From: Nitrospirota bacterium
GTDB lineage: Bacteria; Nitrospirota; Thermodesulfovibrionia; Thermodesulfovibrionales; JdFR-88
NCBI GenBank assembly: GCA_021789935.1
Contig: JAJYIR010000012.1
Location: forward strand, 2,219-66,218
Length of the DNA stretch: 64,000 nucleotides
Direction of reading: 5' to 3'
Below, in pieces: positions 3,346 through 58,307 of this stretch. The notes beneath the pieces are model-generated. The model was given only the letters and a program-made list of their open reading frames with translations, was not told the DNA's origin and searched no databases. How positions within the stretch are numbered: the stretch's first letter is position 1; each line of letters opens with the position of its first letter. Both the position numbers and the translations under genes were made by a program.

Positions 3346-4116
3346 ATGCAGGCGGCAGACATGAACATATTCGCATCTTACCTCCCGGTTTTCCTCCTCG
3401 TGCTTTTACGCACCGGGACCGCGATCGCCTTTCTGCCCTTTTTCTCCAGCACCCTTTTCCCGCTTCGTATTCGCATAGTTTTCGCTGTTGTGCTTGCCCT
3501 TGTGCTCACGCCGGTTGTGAATTTTCCCATGCCATCAAGGCCCGAAATAGCGGGCGTGATCATAAGGGAGGTCATTTTCGGCATGGCGATAGGGTTTTGT
3601 TTCAGGCTCGTGTTTTTCGCAGTGGAGATGGCCGCTCAGATCATGAGCGTTTCGATGGGGCTTTCCATGGCCACTATCCTTAACCCGGAGCTCGGCCAGG
3701 CCACCGAGCTCACTACGCTGTACAGTATGCTGGCAATGCTTTTTTTTCTTAGTGTGAACGGGCACTATGAGCTTATATATGCCTTTGTAAGGAGCTTCGA
3801 GTGGGCCCCGCCGGGGAATGTCTCCATCAGCCGTTTGGCCCCCGCGGTTCTCGGCATGGCGGGCAAGATGTTCGTTATCTCTTTTAAGCTGGCCGCTCCT
3901 ATTATCATAGCGGGGCTGGCGGTCAACCTTCTTCTTGGTTTTATGCAGAAGGCGGCCCCGCAGATGAATATCTTTTTCGTGGCCTATCCCTTGTATATGA
4001 TTGTGGGTTTTGTGTTGCTGATACTGGGGCTTCCGGTATTCATGAACGTAATAGGTTCTTATTTTGACGGCGCAAGAAGCGACGTGTTCAGGATCATTTC
4101 GCTGGCTAAAGGATAA
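3346..4116 (+). CDS. fliR: Flagellar export gate protein FliR
   Basis: Polytopic membrane protein with KAAPQMNIFFVAYP. Start set at ATG 3346 (3361 possible). Confidence 0.92.
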   Translation: MQAADMNIFASYLPVFLLVLLRTGTAIAFLPFFSSTLFPLRIRIVFAVVLALVLTPVVNFPMPSRPEIAGVIIREVIFGMAIGFCFRLVFFAVEMAAQIMSVSMGLSMATILNPELGQATELTTLYSMLAMLFFLSVNGHYELIYAFVRSFEWAPPGNVSISRLAPAVLGMAGKMFVISFKLAAPIIIAGLAVNLLLGFMQKAAPQMNIFFVAYPLYMIVGFVLLILGLPVFMNVIGSYFDGARSDVFRIISLAKG

Positions 4117-48534: not shown

Positions 48535-50034
48535 TTGGGTAAGGGTTTTTCTTTTCCGCATCCTTTTTTTTCCTCGAAGTCCAGCTGGAAGTGGTTCATA
48601 CTGACCACAGTTCTGGTTGGCGCGACGATGTCGGCGCTGGATGTGAGCATCGTGAATGTGGCGATGCCTACGCTCCAGCACAGCTTTAATGTATCGCTGG
48701 CGCTCATAGAGTGGGTTGCGATGGCCTATATGCTGACGCTAACCATATTCCTTCCCCTGTTTGGAAGGCTTGCCGACATGTATGGACGGACAAAGCTCTA
48801 TACAACGGGCTTTGTGGTCTTTACCATAGGCTCGGTCCTTTGCGGGATGTCGCCGACGGCTTCTTTTCTTATTTTTTCCCGTGTGCTGCAGGCGGTGGGC
48901 GCCGGGCTTCTGCAGGCCAACTCGGTGGCAATCATTACCGCTGCGTTTCCCGGCAACGAGCGTGGAAAAGCCATAGGCATTCAGGGCGCGGTCCAGGCGG
49001 TTGCCATGTCCATAGGGCCATTTGTTGGCGGGCTGCTTATCAAGGCGGTAAGCTGGAGGGCCATATTCTATGTAAACCTTCCCATCGGCATAATCGGCGT
49101 TTTAATGGCGCTTCTGATACTGCCCAAAAGCGAAAGCAGCGGCAAAAAGGAGAAGATCGATTTTTTTGGCATACTTACCTTCTCCCCGGGGCTTGCCTGC
49201 ATGGTCCTTGCCCTGAACAAGGGTGAGAAACTGGGCTGGACATCGAACACCATACTGGCGTATTTCGCCCTTGCGGCTGTGTTGCTCACCGCGTTCGTCA
49301 TTACCGAGCTGAAGGTTGAACACCCAATGATAGACCTGAAGCTGTTCAAAAGCTACACCTTCAGCGCGGGAAACATCACCGGCATGCTTTCCTATTATGT
49401 TCTGTTCGCGATACTCTTCCTCATGCCTTTTTACATGGAGGAGGTCCTTCACTACGGGGTCGCCCTGACAGGCAGTCTTCTTACACCCATTCCTCTTGCG
49501 ATGGCGTTCGTGGCGCCGGTTGCGGGCTCTATCTCGGACAAGCACGGCTCCAGGGTAATGACCACCTCCGGGATGCTTGTTTGCGCACTTGCAACGTTCT
49601 TCCTCATGTTCATGGGCGAGTCCGCCCACCTTACCTGGCTTGTGCTGGATTTGGTCGTCCTCGGCATAGGGATGGGAATGTTCACGCCGCCAAACAACAG
49701 CGCAATAATGGGCGCCGCTCCCAGGGAGAAGCTTGGTCTTGCCGGCGGCATCCTCAACATGACGAGGTCTCTTGGCCTTATTTTCGGTGTGGACATCTCG
49801 GGCCTCATCTTTACCAGTCTTAAGCATAGCTACTATGTTTCCAAGGGCTTCAGTCTGGCCGACACAAAGACCATCCCTGCAGAAGTAAGGAATGATGCCT
49901 TCATGCACGGGTTCATGGTGGTGATGGGCGTGCTCGTGGGAATAAACATAATTGCCGCAATCCTTTCGGTTGCCAAGAAGGATGAAGGTCTCCTGAGCGC
50001 CGAGGAGATGAAGGAGTTTGCTGCCGGGGACTGA
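48535..50034 (+). CDS. MFS transporter, DHA2 (EmrB/QacA-like) family
   Basis: LDVSIVNVAMP, GRLADMYGR, WRAIFYVNLPIG and HPMIDLKLF motifs; about 14 TM. TTG start. Confidence 0.9.
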   Translation: MGKGFSFPHPFFSSKSSWKWFILTTVLVGATMSALDVSIVNVAMPTLQHSFNVSLALIEWVAMAYMLTLTIFLPLFGRLADMYGRTKLYTTGFVVFTIGSVLCGMSPTASFLIFSRVLQAVGAGLLQANSVAIITAAFPGNERGKAIGIQGAVQAVAMSIGPFVGGLLIKAVSWRAIFYVNLPIGIIGVLMALLILPKSESSGKKEKIDFFGILTFSPGLACMVLALNKGEKLGWTSNTILAYFALAAVLLTAFVITELKVEHPMIDLKLFKSYTFSAGNITGMLSYYVLFAILFLMPFYMEEVLHYGVALTGSLLTPIPLAMAFVAPVAGSISDKHGSRVMTTSGMLVCALATFFLMFMGESAHLTWLVLDLVVLGIGMGMFTPPNNSAIMGAAPREKLGLAGGILNMTRSLGLIFGVDISGLIFTSLKHSYYVSKGFSLADTKTIPAEVRNDAFMHGFMVVMGVLVGINIIAAILSVAKKDEGLLSAEEMKEFAAGD

Positions 50035-50061
50035 TGTCTCCTGAACCTTTACATATCTTCA

Positions 50062-50100
50062 AAACGGGCCGGAGAACAGCAGAATCCTCCGGCCCGTTTT
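50062..50100 (+). terminator. Terminator-like hairpin after the MFS gene
   Basis: AAACGGGCCGGAG...CTCCGGCCCGTTTT. Confidence 0.6.
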
Positions 50101-50166
50101 GCATTGACCGGCGCCAGGATTTTCTCCCGGCTTTATTTTCAGATGGTTTTTCTGTAAACTTAGCGT

Positions 50167-51120
50167 ATGATGAATTTTAAAGATCTCCTGGATGAATCCG
50201 TTAAGCTTCACGGGCATCTTTGCGCCGGACAGGTGCTTGGGGTGCGGATGTCCATGGCGGGATTAAGAGAGGCCGGTATTTTCGCCCCCAGGGGGGCCGA
50301 CAGGAAAAACCTTATTGTCTTTGTCGAGATAGACAGGTGCGCGACTGACGCCATACAGTCCGTAACCGGGTGCAGCCTGGGCAAAAGGACTATGAAATTC
50401 GCGGACTATGGCAAGATGGCTGCAAGCTTCCTGAACCTGAAAAACGGGAAGGCCGTAAGAGTGCTGGCCAAAGAGGAATCCAGGCAAAGGGCAAAGGAAT
50501 ACTTCCCCGAAATTGAAAATCGTTACGAGGCGCAGCTTGAGGCTTACAAGATAATGCCGGAGCAGGAGCTTTTCGAGATTTCAGAGGTCGTCATAAAGAT
50601 TAAGCCGGAAGACATGCCTGGCCGCCCGACCGGCAGGGTGCCCTGCGCAAGGTGCGGAGAATATGTGCAGGACTCCAGGGAAGTAACGCACGGGGATATT
50701 AATTTGTGCCGGCCGTGCTCAACGGAGGCCGGTTATTACGAGGGTCCTTTTTTTTCATCTAGCGTTATGCACAAATTGCATAACGATTTTGAAATCAAAT
50801 CGAAGCTCTGGATTGAGTCAGGGGGAGGGCCTTTTTTTGGCCGGGGCAAGGTGCTTCTGCTGAAGGCCATAGACAGGCACGGTTCCATAAGCCAGGCGGC
50901 GAAAGAGGTGAACATCCCGTACAGGAAGGCATGGGGCTATATCAAGGCAATGGAAGAAAGACTCGGCATCCCTCTTGTGGAGTGCAAGGCTGGAGGGAAA
51001 AACGGCGGCGGCGCGACCCTGACTCCAGAGATAAGGGATTTCCTTGCCAAGTATGACCGGATTGAAAAAGAGATGCGGCTGAAGACGGATGAAAAGTTCA
51101 GGGAGATATTCGGATTATAA
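50167..51120 (+). CDS. FmdE-family (FwdE-like plus Zn finger) domain fused to a ModE-type winged HTH
   Basis: HGHLCAGQVLGVRM, EIDRCATDAIQ and CARCGE..CRPC; then KSKLWIE..FGRG..LLKAIDRHGSISQAAK..YRKAW..GG..GGGATLT. Confidence 0.85.
   Translation: MMNFKDLLDESVKLHGHLCAGQVLGVRMSMAGLREAGIFAPRGADRKNLIVFVEIDRCATDAIQSVTGCSLGKRTMKFADYGKMAASFLNLKNGKAVRVLAKEESRQRAKEYFPEIENRYEAQLEAYKIMPEQELFEISEVVIKIKPEDMPGRPTGRVPCARCGEYVQDSREVTHGDINLCRPCSTEAGYYEGPFFSSSVMHKLHNDFEIKSKLWIESGGGPFFGRGKVLLLKAIDRHGSISQAAKEVNIPYRKAWGYIKAMEERLGIPLVECKAGGKNGGGATLTPEIRDFLAKYDRIEKEMRLKTDEKFREIFGL
50763..50785. promoter_or_regulatory. ModE-box-like perfect palindrome inside the fmdE-modE ORF
   Basis: CGTTATGCA-CAAAT-TGCATAACG. Confidence 0.65.
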
Positions 51121-51162
51121 TTTTTTTTAGGGAAAAATATGGGGATATGAGGTATTCAATCC

Positions 51163-52257
51163 ATGTGCGATGAGTTTTTTCCCCCGATAGGAAAAGGCGG
51201 CAGCGGGGGTGGAAGCAAAAAGAAAAAGACCGTTCCGGTATCACTGGCAGCCGGAATGGTGCTTGCCCACGATATTACCGAGGTACGTCCGGATTTTAAG
51301 GGGCGGGCGTTCAGGAAGGGGCACATCGTCAAACAAGAGGATATCGCCCACCTGATGAGGCTGGGAAAGGAACACCTTTATGTCCTTGCTCTGGCCCCTG
51401 AGGAGATGCACGAGGACGAAGCGGCGTCAGTGATGGCGGCAGCCGTTATGGGCAAGGGCGTGGAAGCGGGGGAGTGCCGCGAAGGGAAGATCAATGTGTC
51501 CGCCTCTATTGACGGGCTTTTAAAAGTAGACAAAGAGGCGCTGATGGAGTTCAACATGCAAGGCGAAATAATGTGCGCCACCTTGCACGATGGCACCGTT
51601 GTGCGGAAAGGGCAGACGGTAGCGGCCACACGAGCAATACCGCTTGTCGTGGACCGCCGGGCTGTGGAGCTGGCTGCCGGCATTGCACGCGAAAAAGGAG
51701 GCATCGTAAAGGTCCTGCCGGTCAGAAAGCCCAAAACAGGTGTTGTGATTACCGGCGAAGAGGTGTTTTCGGGACGGATAAAGGACGCCTTTGCCCCCGT
51801 CATCAGGGGGAAAATAGAGGCATTGGGCGGGGAAATAATCGGTATCGCCTATGCCCCCGATGATGAAAACTTCATCGCGGCAAGGCTAAGGGAATTCCTG
51901 AATAAGGGGGCGGACCTGCTTATCGCGACAGGTGGAATGTCCGTGGATCCGGACGACGTCACCAGGTTTGCCATAAGGGATTTAGGCGCCCGGGACATCA
52001 CATATGGGGCGGCGGTGCTGCCAGGCTCGATGTTCCTTTCGGCCACCATAGAGAACGCGAAGGGTGCTGTTGTGCCAGTCTTAGGAGTACCTACCTGTGC
52101 CATGTACGGCAAGACAACCATATTGGACCTCATGCTGCCAAGGATACTTGCGGGAGAGGAGATTGGCAGGAGGCAGCTGGCGGAACTTGGGCACGGGGGC
52201 CTGTGTCTCCACTGCAGCGTGTGCCGCTGGCCCGTTTGTCCTTTTGGAAAATTTTGA
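51163..52257 (+). CDS. Molybdopterin-binding protein (MoeA-like/MoCF biosynthesis domain)
   Basis: GMVLAHDIT, TGGMSVDPDD and GAAVLPG motifs; C-terminal CLHCSVCRWPVCPFGK. Confidence 0.8.
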   Translation: MCDEFFPPIGKGGSGGGSKKKKTVPVSLAAGMVLAHDITEVRPDFKGRAFRKGHIVKQEDIAHLMRLGKEHLYVLALAPEEMHEDEAASVMAAAVMGKGVEAGECREGKINVSASIDGLLKVDKEALMEFNMQGEIMCATLHDGTVVRKGQTVAATRAIPLVVDRRAVELAAGIAREKGGIVKVLPVRKPKTGVVITGEEVFSGRIKDAFAPVIRGKIEALGGEIIGIAYAPDDENFIAARLREFLNKGADLLIATGGMSVDPDDVTRFAIRDLGARDITYGAAVLPGSMFLSATIENAKGAVVPVLGVPTCAMYGKTTILDLMLPRILAGEEIGRRQLAELGHGGLCLHCSVCRWPVCPFGKF

Positions 52258-52277
52258 CCTGTTCCCGGAGATCCATC

Positions 52278-53231
52278 ATGGAACTTAGAGACTCTTTTGG
52301 CAGGAAGATAGACTATATAAGACTCTCCGTAACGGACAGGTGCAATCTTCGCTGCATATACTGCAACCCGGGTAACGCTTCGAGGTGTTCTTTAAATCCG
52401 GGCAAGATGCCGAAATTCGAAAAAATAACCCGTTTTTTGCGTGTTGCCAGGAAATACGGGTTAAAAAAGGTAAGGCTCACGGGGGGCGAACCTCTTTTAA
52501 GGAAGGATATAGTCCATCTGGTCCGTGAGATCAAGGCCATTGGTATAGAGGACCTCAGCCTTACCACAAACGGCCTTCTGCTTCCGTTTTTTGCAACGGA
52601 GCTCAAGATGGCGGGGCTGGACAGGGTAAATATAAGCCTTGACTCCCTGAATCCGGACCGCTACGGATCAATAACCGGCGGCGGCAGACTGGGCGATGCT
52701 CTTCGGGCCATCAGGGAGGCCGAAAAGGTCTTTTGGCCGGCCCCGGTCAAGATAAACATGGTCCCTATAAAGGGCGTAAACGGAGACGAAATACGCGGTT
52801 TTGCTCAAATGACCCTGGAGAACCTTTTTCATGTCAGGTTCATAGAGCTTATGCCGGTTGGCGGCAGTGCCTTTGAGGAAATGAGAATCACGTCCGGGGA
52901 AGCCAAGGATGCGATATCCTCCATGGGCGGGCTTCTTCCTCTTGGCCGTTCCGGCTCTTCAGACAACTACGCGCTTCCGGGCGCCAAGGGAGTGATAGGT
53001 TTCATAAGTCCCATGAGCGGCCATTTATGCGATTCCTGCAACAGGCTGCGCATAACGCCGGCGGGCAAAATAAGGCCCTGTCTTTTCTCGGACCATGAGC
53101 AGGACCTGAATACGGCTTCCACCGAAGATGAGATGGAACGGTTATTGCTCATTTCAGTATTGAGCAAAGAGAAAGGGAGTCTTCTTAAGAGGGCTGTACA
53201 GTTCGATACCATGCAACAGGTTGGGGGTTAA
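52278..53231 (+). CDS. moaA: GTP 3',8-cyclase MoaA
   Basis: RLSVTDRCNLRCIYC, TGGEPLLR, CDSCNRLR and C-terminal GG. Start moved to ATG 52278. Confidence 0.93.
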   Translation: MELRDSFGRKIDYIRLSVTDRCNLRCIYCNPGNASRCSLNPGKMPKFEKITRFLRVARKYGLKKVRLTGGEPLLRKDIVHLVREIKAIGIEDLSLTTNGLLLPFFATELKMAGLDRVNISLDSLNPDRYGSITGGGRLGDALRAIREAEKVFWPAPVKINMVPIKGVNGDEIRGFAQMTLENLFHVRFIELMPVGGSAFEEMRITSGEAKDAISSMGGLLPLGRSGSSDNYALPGAKGVIGFISPMSGHLCDSCNRLRITPAGKIRPCLFSDHEQDLNTASTEDEMERLLLISVLSKEKGSLLKRAVQFDTMQQVGG

Positions 53232-53234
53232 GGC

Positions 53235-54059
53235 ATGTTCAGAAAGGGTTTTCCCCAGATTTTTGTTAAAAGGTTTTTGGCCGTTCCAGTGATTTTTTTG
53301 TTGGCCGCCGCCTTTTTTGTAACTTTTTGTCCGCTGGAGGGACACGCCGCCGCTCAAAACAATCAAGATATCACCGTCTCGGCGGCAATAAGTCTTAAAA
53401 ACGCCTTCAACGAGATAGCAAAGATATACGAGGAAAGGAACCCGGGCGTAAAAATACTATTCAACTTCGGGGCTTCGGGCAACCTGATGATGCAGATAGA
53501 GGAGGGCGCGCCGGTGGATGTCTTTGCCTCCGCAGCCGAAAAACAGATGGACGATCTGGCGGGAAAAGGGCTCATAGCGCCAGGCTCCAGGGTGGATTTC
53601 GCCGAAAATACCGTTGTCCTCATCGTTCCATCGGGACAAAAGAGCGCATTTGTCAAAGGCTTCATGGACCTTACGGACCCTCGCATAAAAAGGATCGCCA
53701 TAGGCAACCCCAAGTCCGTGCCCGCCGGAATGTACTCGGAAGAGACTCTCAAATATTTTGGGCTTGGGACTTCCGTAAGTAAAAAAATTATATACGGCGA
53801 GCATGTGAGGCAGGTGCTTGAATACGTTGCAAGGGGAGAGGTGGACGCTGGTCTCGTTTACTCCACGGATGCCAGGATTGAGGCGGGGCAGGTGAGGGTG
53901 GCGGCTGTCGCGCCGCCCGCCAGCCACAAACCGGTCGTGTACCCCATAACGGTCGTCAGAGGGTCGGCAAACGAAAAACTCGCGCGGACTTTCGTGTCTC
54001 TGGTTACATCACCGGAAGGTAAGAAAATCCTCCGGAAATACGGGTTTGAATCGAAATGA
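53235..54059 (+). CDS. modA: Molybdate ABC transporter substrate-binding protein
   Basis: Signal peptide; SAAISL, FGASG.L..QIEEGAP, VPAG and VYSTDA motifs. Confidence 0.92.
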   Translation: MFRKGFPQIFVKRFLAVPVIFLLAAAFFVTFCPLEGHAAAQNNQDITVSAAISLKNAFNEIAKIYEERNPGVKILFNFGASGNLMMQIEEGAPVDVFASAAEKQMDDLAGKGLIAPGSRVDFAENTVVLIVPSGQKSAFVKGFMDLTDPRIKRIAIGNPKSVPAGMYSEETLKYFGLGTSVSKKIIYGEHVRQVLEYVARGEVDAGLVYSTDARIEAGQVRVAAVAPPASHKPVVYPITVVRGSANEKLARTFVSLVTSPEGKKILRKYGFESK

Positions 54060-54134
54060 TTTTTTGTCCCCTTTTATTTTTTCTTTTTTCTTTCTCTTTT
54101 ACGCCTTTGACCGGCTGGGAGACTTGGTGAACCT

Positions 54135-54800
54135 ATGAGCGCTAACGGGATGTTTTCGCTCAGGCTGTCGTTTCAGGTTGCCCTGGTAGTGACATTTTTC
54201 ATACTGCTTGCCGGTGTCCCGGTCTCTTACATTCTGGCGAGGAAAAAATTCCGTGGCAAGGAACTTCTGGACGCGCTTTTTACGCTTCCCCTGGTGCTCC
54301 CGCCGACGGTAACGGGATATTACCTGATAGTCCTTTTGGGCCGGAACGGGTTTTTTGGCCGTCCGCTTTACAACCTCACCGGCTGGACTGCCATGTTCAC
54401 CTGGTGGGCGGCGGCGGCGGCCTCCTTCGTGGTGTCCATACCGCTTATGATAAGGACCTCCAGGGCCGCGATAGAATCCGTGGATGAAAACCTTGTGAAC
54501 GCTTCCTATACACTGGGACATGGAGAGCTCAAGACCGCGCTCAGGGTGGTGCTCCCTCTTGCGAAAAAGGGAATAATGGCCGGGGCAGTGCTTTCCTTCG
54601 CAAGGGCGATAGGCGAGTTCGGCGCAACTCTGATGTTTGCCGGCGACATACCCGGCAAGACGGAGACCATGCCGCTTGCCATCTACAATTACCTTGAAAA
54701 CGGAGAGTGGGACAGGGCGCGGGCCATGGCCATCATACTTACCGTTTTGTCAGTGTCGGTCATATATATCGCCAACAGGTTAAGCAAGAGGATATTTTGA
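54135..54800 (+). CDS. modB: Molybdate ABC transporter permease
   Basis: LPLVLPPTVTGY and FARAIGEFGAT motifs. Confidence 0.93.
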   Translation: MSANGMFSLRLSFQVALVVTFFILLAGVPVSYILARKKFRGKELLDALFTLPLVLPPTVTGYYLIVLLGRNGFFGRPLYNLTGWTAMFTWWAAAAASFVVSIPLMIRTSRAAIESVDENLVNASYTLGHGELKTALRVVLPLAKKGIMAGAVLSFARAIGEFGATLMFAGDIPGKTETMPLAIYNYLENGEWDRARAMAIILTVLSVSVIYIANRLSKRIF

Positions 54801-54802
54801 AA

Positions 54803-55561
54803 ATGGGGCTTTCGGTCAACATCAGGAAGAGGCTCAACGGGTTTTCCATGGACGTCAACTGGCGCATGGAAAACGAGTTTGCGGTATTGTTCGGGCGCTC
54901 CGGAGCCGGAAAGTCACTTACTCTAAGGTCCGTGGCAGGGCTCATCAGGCCGGATGCCGGAACGATAATTTCGTCTGGAGAGGTGCTTTTTGACTATGCG
55001 GCGCGGATAGATATCTCACCGCAAAAAAGGGGGTTCGGTTACGTTTCCCAGGACCCGGCGCTGTTTCCTCATATGACAGTGCGCGGGAATATTGAATATG
55101 GGATAAAGAAAAATAAAAATAAAAAACCTGTCCTCAAGGGAAAAGACAAAGACCCGGAGGAAAGCTTGAATTATATTCTGGATGCCTTCGGGATAAAAAA
55201 ACTCGGGGACAACCGCCCGGACGAGATATCAGGAGGGCAAAAGCAGCGTGTCGCCCTGGCAAGGGCCCTCATCGGCAGGCCCAGGGCCCTTTTGCTCGAT
55301 GAGCCTTTTTCGGCGCTTGATGCCCCGCTGCGCGCTGAGATGGGAAGGCTTCTCGTGGAAATAAGACGGGAGTTTAATATCCCCGTAGTGCTGGTTACGC
55401 ACGATCTTGCAGAGGCCCGCGGACTGGCCGGAAGACTTATCATTTACCATGGAGGGAAGGTCATCCAGGAGGGTTCGCCTGAAGATGTTATCAGAAGCCC
55501 GGCCAGCGAAGATGTTGCCTCGCTGCTGATGCTGCCGGAAAACAGGGCCGTTTTTTATTGA
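54803..55561 (+). CDS. modC: Molybdate ABC transporter ATPase (no C-terminal TOBE domain)
   Basis: GRSGAGKS, ISGGQKQR and LLLDEPF motifs. Start moved to ATG 54803. Confidence 0.88.
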   Translation: MGLSVNIRKRLNGFSMDVNWRMENEFAVLFGRSGAGKSLTLRSVAGLIRPDAGTIISSGEVLFDYAARIDISPQKRGFGYVSQDPALFPHMTVRGNIEYGIKKNKNKKPVLKGKDKDPEESLNYILDAFGIKKLGDNRPDEISGGQKQRVALARALIGRPRALLLDEPFSALDAPLRAEMGRLLVEIRREFNIPVVLVTHDLAEARGLAGRLIIYHGGKVIQEGSPEDVIRSPASEDVASLLMLPENRAVFY

Positions 55562-55601
55562 TCCATCACAATAGAGCAATAGAGCTTAAAAAGAAAGTTA
55601 T

Positions 55602-58307
55602 TTAGAGCTTCTCTATCCTCACGGCGCAGGACTTGTACTCCGGAGTGCCCGTTATGGGGTCCCTGTGCGGCGAAGTGAGCAGGTTTGTGAGAACGTCCTG
55701 GTGATGGAATGCCAAAAAGACGTTTCCCTCCTGGGAGCGTTCGAATACTCTCACCTTTACTTTTATTTCCCCCCGCCTGGAGCTGACCTTCACCATCTCA
55801 CCGTGTTTGATGCCCAGCTTCGCTGCATCGGCCGGGCTAAGCTCCAGCAGCTCTTCAGGGAACATCTCCATGATCCCCTTTGAGCGCCTGGTCATCGATC
55901 CGTTGTTGTAGTGTTCGCGCCTGCGGCCTGTGATGAGCACAAATGGATAATCCGCGTCAGGGACTTCTCCTGATCCCTTGTGCTCAAGCGCGATGAACCT
56001 GGCGCGCCCGCCGGGCCGGGAGAACATTTCCTGGTAAAGAGTGGCTGTCCCCGGATGGTCCTTGGTGGGGCAGGGCCACTGTATGCTGCCCTGATCAAGC
56101 CGCGCATAGCTTATGCCCCCGTAAATGGGAGCCAGCGACGCTATTTCATCCATGATTTCCGAAGGATGGTTGTATTTCATTTGATAGCCCATCCTTGAGG
56201 CTATCTCGCAGAAGACCTCCCATTCGGCCTTGCCGGAGACGGGTTCCACAGCCTTCCTGATTCTCTGCACTCTTCGCTCTCCGTTTGTGAACGTGCCTTC
56301 TTTTTCAGCGAAGCTGGCGCCAGGCAGCACCACATGGGCAAAACGCGTGGTCTCGGTGTGGAAGATGTCCTGCACGACCAGAAACTCCACTGAGGCAAGC
56401 GCCTGGCGTATGTGGGAGATATCCGGGTCCGTATGGGCCGGGTCCTCGCCGAGGATGAAAAGTCCTTTGAAAGTGCCTTTTTTTGCCTCATCGAGCATCT
56501 CTACTGATTTGAGCCCCGGTTTTGAGGGCAGTTTTACTCCCCAGGCTTTTTCGAATTTCTCCCTGACCTTGGGGTCGGTTACCGGTTGGTATCCGGTAAA
56601 AGCGGCCGGTGCAGGCCCCATGTCCGAAGCGCCCTGGACATTGTTTTGCCCCCTGAGCGCCATTATGCCGGTGGCGGGTCTGCCTATATGGCCGCAGACG
56701 AGGGCCAGGTTGGCCACGGCCATGGCGTTTTCCGTGCCGGTCTGGTGCTCGGTCACTCCCAAACCGTAAAGGATCATGGCGTTTTTTGCCCCGGCGTATA
56801 TCCTGGCAGCCTCTACCAGCTTCTCGGGGGAAACGCCGGTCAGTTCGTGAACATGAGCGGGTGTGTATTTCTCCACTGCGTCCTTCAGATCTTCGAACCC
56901 TTCGGTCCTTTTTTCGATGAAATCCCTGTTATAAAGGCCTTCCTTGAGTATTACATGCACAAGTCCGTTCAGAAGGGCGATATTGGAGCCGGGTTTCAGG
57001 TTGAGCCAGACGTCAGCCCATTTGACCAGCTCTATCTTCCTGGGGTCTGCGACGATTATTCGGGCCCCGTTTTTTATCGCCTTGTTCACATGAATGGAGA
57101 TCACCGGATGTCCTTCGGTGGTGTTCGATCCGAAGATCAAAAGCGCATCCGCCTCCGATATCTGGTCGAAGGAATTGCTCGCGGCTCCCGCCCCTAAAGA
57201 TGTGGCCAGACCGGCCACAGTTGGGGCGTGTCAAACCCGGGCGCAGTTATCTACGTTATTGCTGCCCAGGACCGTGCGGACCCATTTGGAGACCAGGTAA
57301 TTTTCCTCGTTGGTGCAGCGCGAAGAGGAAAAGGCCCCCACGGCATCCGGACCATACTTTTCCTTAATCGCTCCAAAGCGGCTTGCTATGAGGTCCAGGG
57401 CCTCATCCCATGTGGCTTCGCGGAATTTCCCGCCTTCTTTTATAAGAGGGGTTTTTATCCGGTCCTCATGATGTATGAACTCATAGCCGAAGCGCCCTTT
57501 TATGCACAGGTTCCCTTTGTTGACGGGAGAATCGTAGTCAGAGGTGACCTTCGTCACCTTGCCATGCTTTACATTCAGGAAGAAGGAACAACCCGTCCCG
57601 CAGTAAGAGCAAGTGGTTTTAACCTTTTTTACGGAAAGGTGCCGGCCCGTTCTGGCGGAGGGCTTTTCCACAAGGGCTCCTGTGGGGCACGTGGAGACGC
57701 ACTGGCCGCAGAAAAGGCAGTTTTCAGGGGATAGGGGTTTGCCGAAAGCGGTGTCCGGTTTCGCGTGAAAGCCTCTGCCGGTCATATCTATGGCTCCCTT
57801 GAGCATCACGTTTTTGCAGATGTTCACGCACCTGCCGCAAAGGATGCATTTGTTCGGGTCGAAAGTTATGAAAGGGTTGTCTTCCCTTTTTGGGAGGTCC
57901 CACCGTTCGCCTTCGTACCTGGCGGGGGCCGCATCATATATAAAGGCTAATTCCTGCAAGGAGCAGTCTCCGGCCTTTTCGCAGCGCAGGCAGTCATTCG
58001 GGTGGTTGGAGAGAATGAGGGAAAGCATCGTCCTTCTAAGTTCAGTGAGGTTCTCGCTTTCCGTCGTGATCTCCATACCGTCTTGTATCGGGGTCGTGCA
58101 GGAAGAAAGCGGCCTGTTTATCCCTTTTACTTCCACCAGGCACAGCCTGCAGCCGCCATAAGGTTCCAGGCGAGGGTCAAAGCAGAGGGTGGGGATGAAT
58201 ATGCCCGCCTCCCTGCAGACCTCAAGGATGGTCTTACCTTCTTCACAATCGATCTGTTTTTGATTTATAAGGATCTTAATCAACTTCCCAGCCTGTTTAC
58301 CATCCAA
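55602..58307 (-). CDS. fdhF: Selenocysteine-containing formate dehydrogenase alpha subunit with N-terminal Fe-S domains (901 aa, one gene read through UGA at 57231-57233)
   Basis: The two same-frame ORFs join as DNCARV-U-HAPTVAGL. Also RGQNNVQG, [2Fe-2S]/[4Fe-4S] Cys motifs and TPEYK; SECIS directly after the UGA. Confidence 0.92.
57189..57228 (-). promoter_or_regulatory. Bacterial SECIS element
   Basis: mRNA after the UGA: CGCCCC-AAC-UGUGGCC-GGUCU-GGCCACA-UCUUUA-GGGGCG, with the same loop region as the E. coli fdhF SECIS. Confidence 0.85.

Follow-up and report, generated by a model that had tools for sequence, protein, structure and literature searches.

A predicted ModE-type operator at the domain junction of an FmdE-ModE fusion gene, conserved as DNA among its relatives

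A stretch of 64,000 nucleotides (nt) from the genome of a Nitrospirota bacterium of the JdFR-88 lineage (GCA_021789935.1, contig JAJYIR010000012.1, positions 2,219 to 66,218), hereafter the window and numbered C53:2219-66218 in our copy of the genome, contains a gene that fuses an FmdE domain to a ModE-type winged helix-turn-helix (HTH) DNA-binding domain. At the junction between the two domains, the coding sequence of this putative regulator harbors an inverted repeat that resembles the operators of ModE, and the question raised by this arrangement is what keeps such a site inside a gene, and in particular inside the gene of the regulator that might be expected to bind it. The evidence presented below leads us to assign a probability of about 0.8 to the repeat being a functional operator for its own regulator, as judged from comparative sequence data; the way in which such an operator would work within the fused gene is a more tentative matter.

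The repeat, here termed the box, is composed of CGTTATGCA (50763-50771), CAAAT (50772-50776) and TGCATAACG (50777-50785). A repeat finder returns it as two 9-nt arms of 100% complementarity with 5 nt between them, in agreement with the perfect 9-bp inverted repeat that the original prediction, made from the letters of the window alone, had placed at this position. Sites of this kind are rare. The box pattern, allowing up to three mismatches, is matched once in the window; 100 dinucleotide-preserving shuffles average 0.02 matches, two of them containing at least one, and the looser pattern CGTTAT-N9-13-ATAACG also yields a single match in the window where 0.02 are expected. In the whole genome (60 contigs, 2,471,817 bases) the box is again the single site detected by both strict and relaxed patterns. 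The scan with a position weight matrix (PWM) that had been suggested as a check was carried out with a matrix derived from relatives, own genome left out; it scores the box at 34.4 bits and the next best site in the genome at 16.8 bits, with shuffled-column controls reaching up to 19.6 bits. Neither the strict and relaxed patterns nor the PWM scan reveal a second box-type site in the genome. Across 41 genomes, matches with up to two mismatches are no commoner than those of a reversed-pattern control (9 versus 10 in genome G000, for example). There seems to be one box per genome, and a wider regulon could not be delimited.

ModE operators are a known kind of site, and the box can be compared with them half-site by half-site. 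The operator of Escherichia coli K-12 modA is CGTTATAT-TGTCGCCT-ACATAACG (in short, CGTTATAT-N8-ACATAACG) and ends 19 nt before the modA ATG. It shares with the box the outer half-sites CGTTAT ... ATAACG, an AT-rich spacer, a homologous DNA-binding domain on the side of the protein and a location at the head of molybdate uptake genes; we take the E. coli site to overlap the -10 element and the transcription start of modA. The E. coli regulator differs from the one described here, which lacks Mop/TOBE domains and carries an N-terminal FmdE domain and a zinc ribbon instead, and the E. coli site does not share the location of the present box inside the coding sequence of its own regulator. The available text of PMC545781 gives the E. 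coli consensus as atCGnTATATA-N6-TATATAnCGat, and that of PMC12327845 describes a palindrome-dependent requirement of the Methanosarcina acetivorans ModE for RTTATGT-N8-RCATAAY, validated by electrophoretic mobility shift assay. The inverted repeat of CGnTAT / RTTATG half-sites is present in the box as CGTTATG ... CATAACG, and the half-site GTTATG / CATAAC is common to the box and the M. acetivorans motif, with a G-to-C distance of 22 bp in the latter and 21 bp here. M. acetivorans has many intergenic sites per genome and a ModE with one Mop domain, whereas a single site is found here. The identification of the repeat as a ModE box is consequently sustained for the half-sites, which equal those of E. 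coli modA and fit the M. acetivorans motif, but not for the spacing, which is of 23 instead of 24 bp.

The comparison was extended to 30 loci from 40 related genomes plus the own genome and to 80 loci from species-representative genomes, nearly all of them Nitrospirota/Thermodesulfovibrionia, leaving 106 loci after removal of duplicates; a box was called at the junction when it matched CGTTATG-N9-CATAACG with up to three mismatches. Fusion of FmdE to an HTH domain is common: PF02663 and PF00126 are both present in 120 of 120 homologues among the matches listed (57-97% identity), for many of which PF01258 is recorded as well. All 21 fused genes have a junction box (13 perfect, six with one mismatch and two with two mismatches) at protein identities to the query of 58-83%. 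The junction box is also present in 40 of the 43 loci in which fmdE is followed by an adjacent, separate HTH gene (split loci), and in only four of the 42 loci with FmdE and no downstream HTH (L025, L094, L098 and L111). In the split loci 3-102 nt separate the box from the HTH domain that follows it, and the box itself is often non-coding; in 38 of 40 the distance from the end of the box to the start of the HTH is of 3-37 nt, a short distance before a start codon like that of the E. coli site. This arrangement fits the suggestion that an operator was absorbed during fusion. A search expression that admitted total lengths of 21-25 bp returned no junction boxes other than those of 23 bp. The consensus of 63 unique contexts reads CGTTATGCA, five mostly A/T bases and G(T/C)CATAACG; complementarity at the inner pairs is uncommon, being seen in 12 of these contexts for pair 8-16 and in 11 for pair 9-15. 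The perfect palindrome, therefore, is real in this genome, but its 9+9 form is particular to it and relatives preserve a core of 7+7.

Two further outcomes of the locus comparison can be recorded here. The best tree requires nine changes between fused and split states, but well-supported branches force only one, and repeated fusion and fission is thus not shown. In six loci (L014, L018, L020, L023, L024 and L027) a small conserved open reading frame (ORF), orfX, encoding 83-127 aa, sits between fmdE and the box; there is an overlap with the 3' end of fmdE, and 5-19 nt separate the stop of orfX from the box. It encodes sequences such as ...LLVND..VPLNEFTQ..., ending in FWLERI.I.T, for which no Pfam family was found.

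The link between box and HTH bears on the identity of the protein that would bind it. The genome is 100% complete by marker genes and encodes one ModE_repress domain, that of the fused gene. Given that the box tracks the HTH, that its half-sites are of the ModE type and that there is only one ModE-type domain in the genome, the gene product would be expected to bind its own gene. A real operator bound by some regulator other than the FmdE-ModE fusion would be compatible with a spacing that departs by 1 bp from validated ModE sites, but we regard it as improbable in view of the uniqueness of the domain, the type of the half-sites and the contrast between 61 of 64 loci with a junction box when an HTH is adjacent or fused and four of 42 when it is not.

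The box is conserved as DNA, not as protein. In split loci its arms are near-invariant, while the spacer and the flanks are variable, and in 23 of 40 such loci the box cannot be translated into the HTH, with 16 of those placing it outside any long ORF. In the remaining 17 an open frame runs from the ATG within the box into the separate HTH gene, and no Shine-Dalgarno sequence precedes it in the split loci inspected. The spacer likewise varies in fused genes and the arms do not. Codon usage was analyzed in 21 unique fused coding sequences, after dropping L068, L073, L074, L117 and L122, in which tblastn rows had been joined across stop codons. The major codon has a median share of 0.52 across 147 columns in which a degenerate amino acid is conserved, yet inside the box His205 is CAT in 21 of 21 sequences and Asn206 is AAC in 19 of 20. 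Control codons for the same amino acids vary (His15, CAC in 16 and CAT in 5; His17, CAT in 14 and CAC in 7; Asn90, AAC in 11 and AAT in 9), and the only codons equally frozen elsewhere are Asp56 (GAC, 21/21) and Phe195 (TTT, 19/19), the latter being part of the T-tract upstream of the box. The test of synonymous sites in homologous fusions proposed with the original prediction is thereby answered, box codons being frozen where other conserved codons vary, and the dual coding it had postulated is upheld by these frozen sites and by the persistence of the box where it is not translated.

The same data argue against two explanations in which the box would have no present function as DNA. The first holds that a linker peptide of the form V-M-Q-x-x-H-N is needed and that the palindrome is its by-product. 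An alignment of 27 fused proteins does show H205 without exception and M201 with few, but the preservation of untranslated boxes, the frozen codon choice, the predicted disorder of the segment (see below) and the fact that separate HTH proteins start after the box peptide, at MEIKSKLW, render this explanation almost untenable. The second regards the box as a relic, functional only in split relatives and carried as a passenger without a role in fused genes. Fused genes show no recognizable promoter at the box, and three loci of one clade lack a junction box; neutral decay would nonetheless be expected at the divergence seen among the 21 fused genes that keep it, in which synonymous sites elsewhere are near random and the spacer varies around unvarying arms. 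We thus consider a relic very unlikely, and the earlier idea of a fossil operator is not borne out, with DNA-level selection still acting on the box.

A palindrome within a transcript might also be maintained as an mRNA hairpin, involved in stability, pausing or masking of the internal AUG, rather than as protein-binding DNA. The 9-bp stem with its 5-nt loop contains the AUG, and for a 71-nt context the minimum free energy is -18.6 kcal/mol, a z-score of -3.86 relative to shuffled sequences. Both arms, however, are conserved in sequence with no compensatory change, the inner pairs are seldom complementary in relatives as noted above, the arms equal known ModE half-sites and the box tracks the HTH gene; covariation cannot formally decide the matter, because the seven outer pairs are invariant. 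No Rfam family matches the box, the sole match lying elsewhere at chance level (E = 0.7), and neither a molybdenum cofactor (Moco) riboswitch nor any other Rfam family was found in 49500-56000. On balance, a hairpin function appears to us to be a distant prospect. An intrinsic terminator at the box was rejected, given that the T-tract precedes the hairpin and no GC-rich stem precedes the T-tract.

The architecture of the encoded protein is congruent with a regulator that could bind such a site. The domain-junction linker and the in-frame ATG at 50767 that had been read from the sequence are corroborated by the ORF translation and by the Pfam assignments to FmdE and HTH_1. The box spans the codons from V200 to N206 plus one base on each side, within the peptide S199 V M201 H K L H205 N206 D207. 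Membership in the FmdE family is indicated by the core domain, the conserved His/Cys metal ligands and the C-terminal zinc ribbon, and the residues H15, H17, C19, C58, C160, C163, C181 and C184, invariant in the 27 aligned fused proteins, probably correspond to the zinc ligands of 2gvi. The structures matched by this part of the protein (2gvi, 3d00 and 2glz) share with it the HxHxC...C metal motif and the Cys4 zinc ribbon. Toward the other end, HTH_1 is matched at aa 231-288 and TIGR00637 (ModE_repress) with E = 1.2e-26 and 89.8-92.7 bits; structural matches are led by 2ijl, a 135-aa protein named molybdenum-binding transcriptional repressor, and include E. coli ModE (1b9m and 1o7l; E = 5e-9 for ModE structures), the match taking in the region SISQ..A..Y+.AW. 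The winged HTH is C-terminal here, whereas the N-terminal location is standard in the ModE family. No TOBE/Mop domain was detected in the fused protein or in the genome, in a search that was positive in 11 of 14 control genomes. In an AlphaFold model based on 27 sequences, with a mean predicted local distance difference test (pLDDT) score of 77.7, residues 187-212 fall below 50, so that the peptide encoded by the box, which links the zinc ribbon (C160-C184) to the HTH, is predicted to be unstructured and would tolerate a constraint imposed by the DNA. The T-tract and the box are free of indels in contigs from four public DNA runs (X1-X4), although X1-X3 may derive from the source sample and this check does not constitute independent support.

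ModE forms dimers. The available text of PMC2954224 reports dimers for the FmdE family too, and a palindromic site would therefore suit a protein both halves of which come from dimer-forming families. The same portion of that article describes a treble-clef zinc finger in FmdE proteins, for which its authors envisaged a part in metal-ion sensing or in the regulation of transcription; it gives fusions of FmdE to PF00994 and PF01980, none to a ModE-type HTH, and proposes no DNA target. We infer that a dimer of the protein formed by the sensor-like FmdE part and the ModE-type HTH binds the box in its own gene. In split relatives the box stands directly ahead of the HTH gene and leads a string formed by the HTH, a moeA-like gene, moaA and modABC; on fusion it would have been retained and would now encode as well the disordered linker V-M-[Q/H]-x-x-H-N. 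In response to a metal or cofactor signal, the regulator bound at the domain junction would block the elongating RNA polymerase there, so that less would be made of the regulator's DNA-binding half and of the products of the downstream genes for Moco synthesis and molybdate uptake, with negative autoregulation by roadblock as the net effect. For the fused gene this roadblock is the mode we favor, if at somewhat less than even odds.

Repressor sites inside genes are themselves a known kind, with intragenic roadblock or auxiliary operators represented by PurR in purB, lac O2 in lacZ and the CcpA and CodY sites inside ORFs. Like the box, these lie inside coding sequence downstream of a promoter; unlike it, they belong to target genes, whereas the box occupies a domain junction within the gene of its regulator. 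The roadblock mode is favored by the absence of any sigma-70-like promoter at the box in a -35/-10 scan of the 21 fused contexts, by a distance of some 600 nt between the box and a promoter-like element upstream of the gene, and by the tight series of same-strand genes that follows. That upstream element (Table 1) consists of CTTTATTTT and TAAACT, and of eight upstream regions compared those of L001, L002 and L007 have CTTTATTT and then TAAACT, with the hexamer precisely 6 nt from the ATG, and L003 has TAAGCT in its place. The regulator gene has no Shine-Dalgarno sequence, which together with the position of TAAACT suggests a leaderless mRNA, and leaderless starts seem to be used in this lineage. 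The fused gene seems, accordingly, to have a promoter of its own, which would place the box about 600 nt inside the transcript, even if a consensus promoter scan of 49900-51400 returned no hit either at the box or immediately ahead of the gene. The inverted repeat that follows the upstream gene for a major facilitator superfamily (MFS) transporter looks like a terminator hairpin separating that gene from the regulator gene; a simple terminator scan did not call it.

An alternative mode of action, in which the box overlaps an internal promoter that the regulator represses by occlusion, in the manner of ModE at E. coli modA, is suggested by the sequences immediately upstream of the box. This promoter would be formed by the T-tract and a TTG/TCG hexamer 2-3 nt upstream, and its products would be an HTH-only protein starting at M201 or nearby, maybe from a leaderless mRNA, and the downstream Moco and mod genes. 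In fused contexts T occupies each of the positions -15 to -10 and -8 in at least 19 of 21 cases, and in split contexts positions -14 to -7 in 25-37 of 42; G at -6 occurs in 18 of 21 fused and 26 of 42 split contexts, and T-Y-G at -8 to -6 is maintained in both classes, at synonymous sites in the fused genes. The short gap between box and HTH start in split loci resembles that of E. coli modA, the box ATG is open to the HTH in the 17 split loci mentioned above, and leaderless starts are apparently used in the lineage. Some split loci, among them L075 (TTGACA-16-TATTAT, 11 of 12 matches) and L009 (TTGACT-18-TATTAT), carry good sigma-70-like matches that would place the start inside the box, and in L073 the module of T-tract, TTTGAG and box is truly intergenic before a moeA-like gene. 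Against this, -35/-10 matches near the box are confined to a minority of split loci, with none in a fused locus or in the window scan; TTG is replaced by TCG in 13 of 21 fused genes and by TCA in the present one; and no consistent position for a -10 element emerges across loci. We treat an internal promoter as possible, at odds only slightly below those of the roadblock. The search for a shared -10 inside the box, modelled on E. coli or on the promoter of the gene itself, was abandoned for want of consistency, and a sigma-54 reading of TGCAC...TTGCA was rejected by inspection on account of its spacing.

The T-tract presents a further peculiarity. One extra T at T8 would end the FmdE frame at a TAG in 50760-50762, and in other fused genes at the TAA in the right arm of the box (50781-50783 here). 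This TAA is the actual stop of the separate fmdE gene in L021 and L087, where the box ATG is available as a start for the HTH gene. Polymerase slippage at T8 may yield an FmdE-only product.

Several observations weigh against the box being a plain autoregulatory operator for a symmetric ModE-type dimer, and against the roadblock mode. The distance from CG to CG is 23 bp, one less than the canonical 24 bp of E. coli and M. acetivorans, and the ModE_repress score of 92.7 bits lies just under the NCBIfam curated cut-off of 98.5. In the left arm C8 and A9 are conserved in 63 and 57 of 63 contexts, respectively, and the mirror positions are not, a feature that a symmetric dimer site leaves unexplained. 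The split loci without a junction box (L073, L121 and L125) form one well-supported clade: in L073 T-tract and box (3520-3542) are found between the HTH gene and the moeA-like gene, some 60 nt from the latter, L125 has no box anywhere in the locus and the L121 locus is truncated. Finally, a roadblock would require nothing beyond the operator, yet the T-tract and the G at -6 are frozen at synonymous sites as well and would be better accounted for by a promoter-like or extended element.

The location of these features and of the genes that follow the regulator is given in Table 1.

Table 1. Location of the box, the fused regulator gene and neighboring features in the window.
Feature	Coordinates	Strand	Details
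Inverted repeat after the upstream MFS transporter gene	50060..50101	+	Perfect, 15 bp; 15-nt arms, 100% complementary, 12 nt between
Promoter-like stretch before the fused gene	50127..50166	+	CTTTATTTT, then TAAACT ending 6 nt before the ATG
Fused regulator gene	50167..51120	+	317 aa; FmdE core, Cys4 zinc ribbon, disordered linker (predicted), ModE-type winged HTH
FmdE domain	50206..50577	+	aa 14-137; Pfam PF02663, 119.3 bits versus cut-off 22.9
Cys4 zinc-ribbon segment	50644..50718	+	C160, C163, C181, C184; invariant columns
T8 tract	50748..50755	+	Precedes the box by 8 nt and runs into TCA (TCG/TTG in relatives); conserved as DNA alongside the box
ModE-type box	50763..50785	.	CGTTATGCA-CAAAT-TGCATAACG; predicted operator and code for linker V200-N206
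In-frame ATG (M201)	50767..50769	+	In left arm of the box; no upstream Shine-Dalgarno
ModE-type DNA-binding domain	50839..51078	+	aa 225-304; TIGR00637 ModE_repress
MoeA-like MoCF_biosynth gene	51163..52257	+	42 nt after the regulator gene; follows the HTH in relatives examined
moaA	52203..53231	+	TIGR02666, 295.4 bits versus cut-off 284
modA	53235-54059	+	Above NCBIfam cut-off (TIGR01256/TIGR02141 for the modA/modB pair)
modB	54135-54800	+	Above NCBIfam cut-off (TIGR01256/TIGR02141 for the modA/modB pair)
modC	ORF 54707-55561	+	Likely start 54803; mod block 53235..55561

The regulator gene, the MoCF_biosynth gene, moaA, modA, modB and modC are tightly packed on the same strand, and the scan called no promoter or terminator between the regulator and the genes downstream of it. 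The start of moaA is likely to be the ATG at 52278. The product of modC matches only positions 1-224 of a 353-position model, corresponding to the ATPase part, and lacks the C-terminal TOBE part; with no TOBE domain elsewhere in the genome, the usual molybdate-sensing module is absent from both transporter and regulator. The MoeA-like protein, which scores far under the cut-offs of MoeA models, starts with MCD/MCE and has a Cys-rich end, GHGGLC..C..CR.PVCPFGK, as it does in L010, L073 and L125. Convergent on the end of the mod operon, a gene on the opposite strand (55602-57218) encodes a formate dehydrogenase alpha subunit (TIGR01591, above cut-off), a likely consumer of the molybdenum or tungsten cofactor. 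Elsewhere in the genome, a second, stand-alone FmdE paralogue (G000:C38:89443-90021) has 35% identity to aa 8-185 of the fusion and no HTH.

Both ModE operators and intragenic repressor sites being known, what is new in this locus is that the site lies in the coding sequence of its regulator, at a domain junction; that its influence on the linker peptide and on codon usage there can be measured; that it persists in fused, overlapping and separate gene arrangements; and that a ModE DNA-binding domain is paired with FmdE instead of with Mop domains. A full-text literature search, in which subscription journals are poorly covered, found no published description of the FmdE-ModE HTH fusion or of the intragenic box. 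Related by composition are the ModE proteins reduced to the N-terminal domain, such as those of Desulfovibrio and D. psychrophila, which likewise present a Mop-less ModE DNA-binding domain, and in whose class 2ijl may be counted. The available text of PMC545781 calls molybdenum sensing by these proteins unclear, describes no FmdE partner or fusion for them and gives for Desulfovibrio a candidate motif, CGGTCACG-N14-CGTGACCG, that is unrelated to the box.

A more far-reaching proposal can be put forward, although we consider it rather unlikely as a whole: the widespread FmdE domain would be the sensor of a class of Mop-less ModE regulators, responding to molybdenum, tungsten or their cofactor, and the fusion would have kept, within the coding sequence, a composite promoter-operator made up of T-tract and box, so that one gene gives two products. 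The full sensor and DNA-binding protein would arise from the leaderless upstream start, and an HTH-only isoform from the box ATG, perhaps also leaderless, under control of the operator. If this were the case, the binding site would dictate the linker peptide and, through the ATG of its left arm, a start codon; where split genes overlap, the TAA of its right arm would add a stop codon.

With or without a second product, the locus presents one stretch of DNA under two codes, in which the linker between the domains of a transcription factor has both its peptide and its synonymous sites set by the putative binding site of that same factor. The fusion itself, the strict ModE-type HTH neighborhood and the lack of Mop/TOBE domains in the genome also point to FmdE as a sensing partner. 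This would bear on the question of how Mop-less ModE regulators sense molybdenum, and it provides a testable function for FmdE proteins, as the signal-sensing partners of such regulators.

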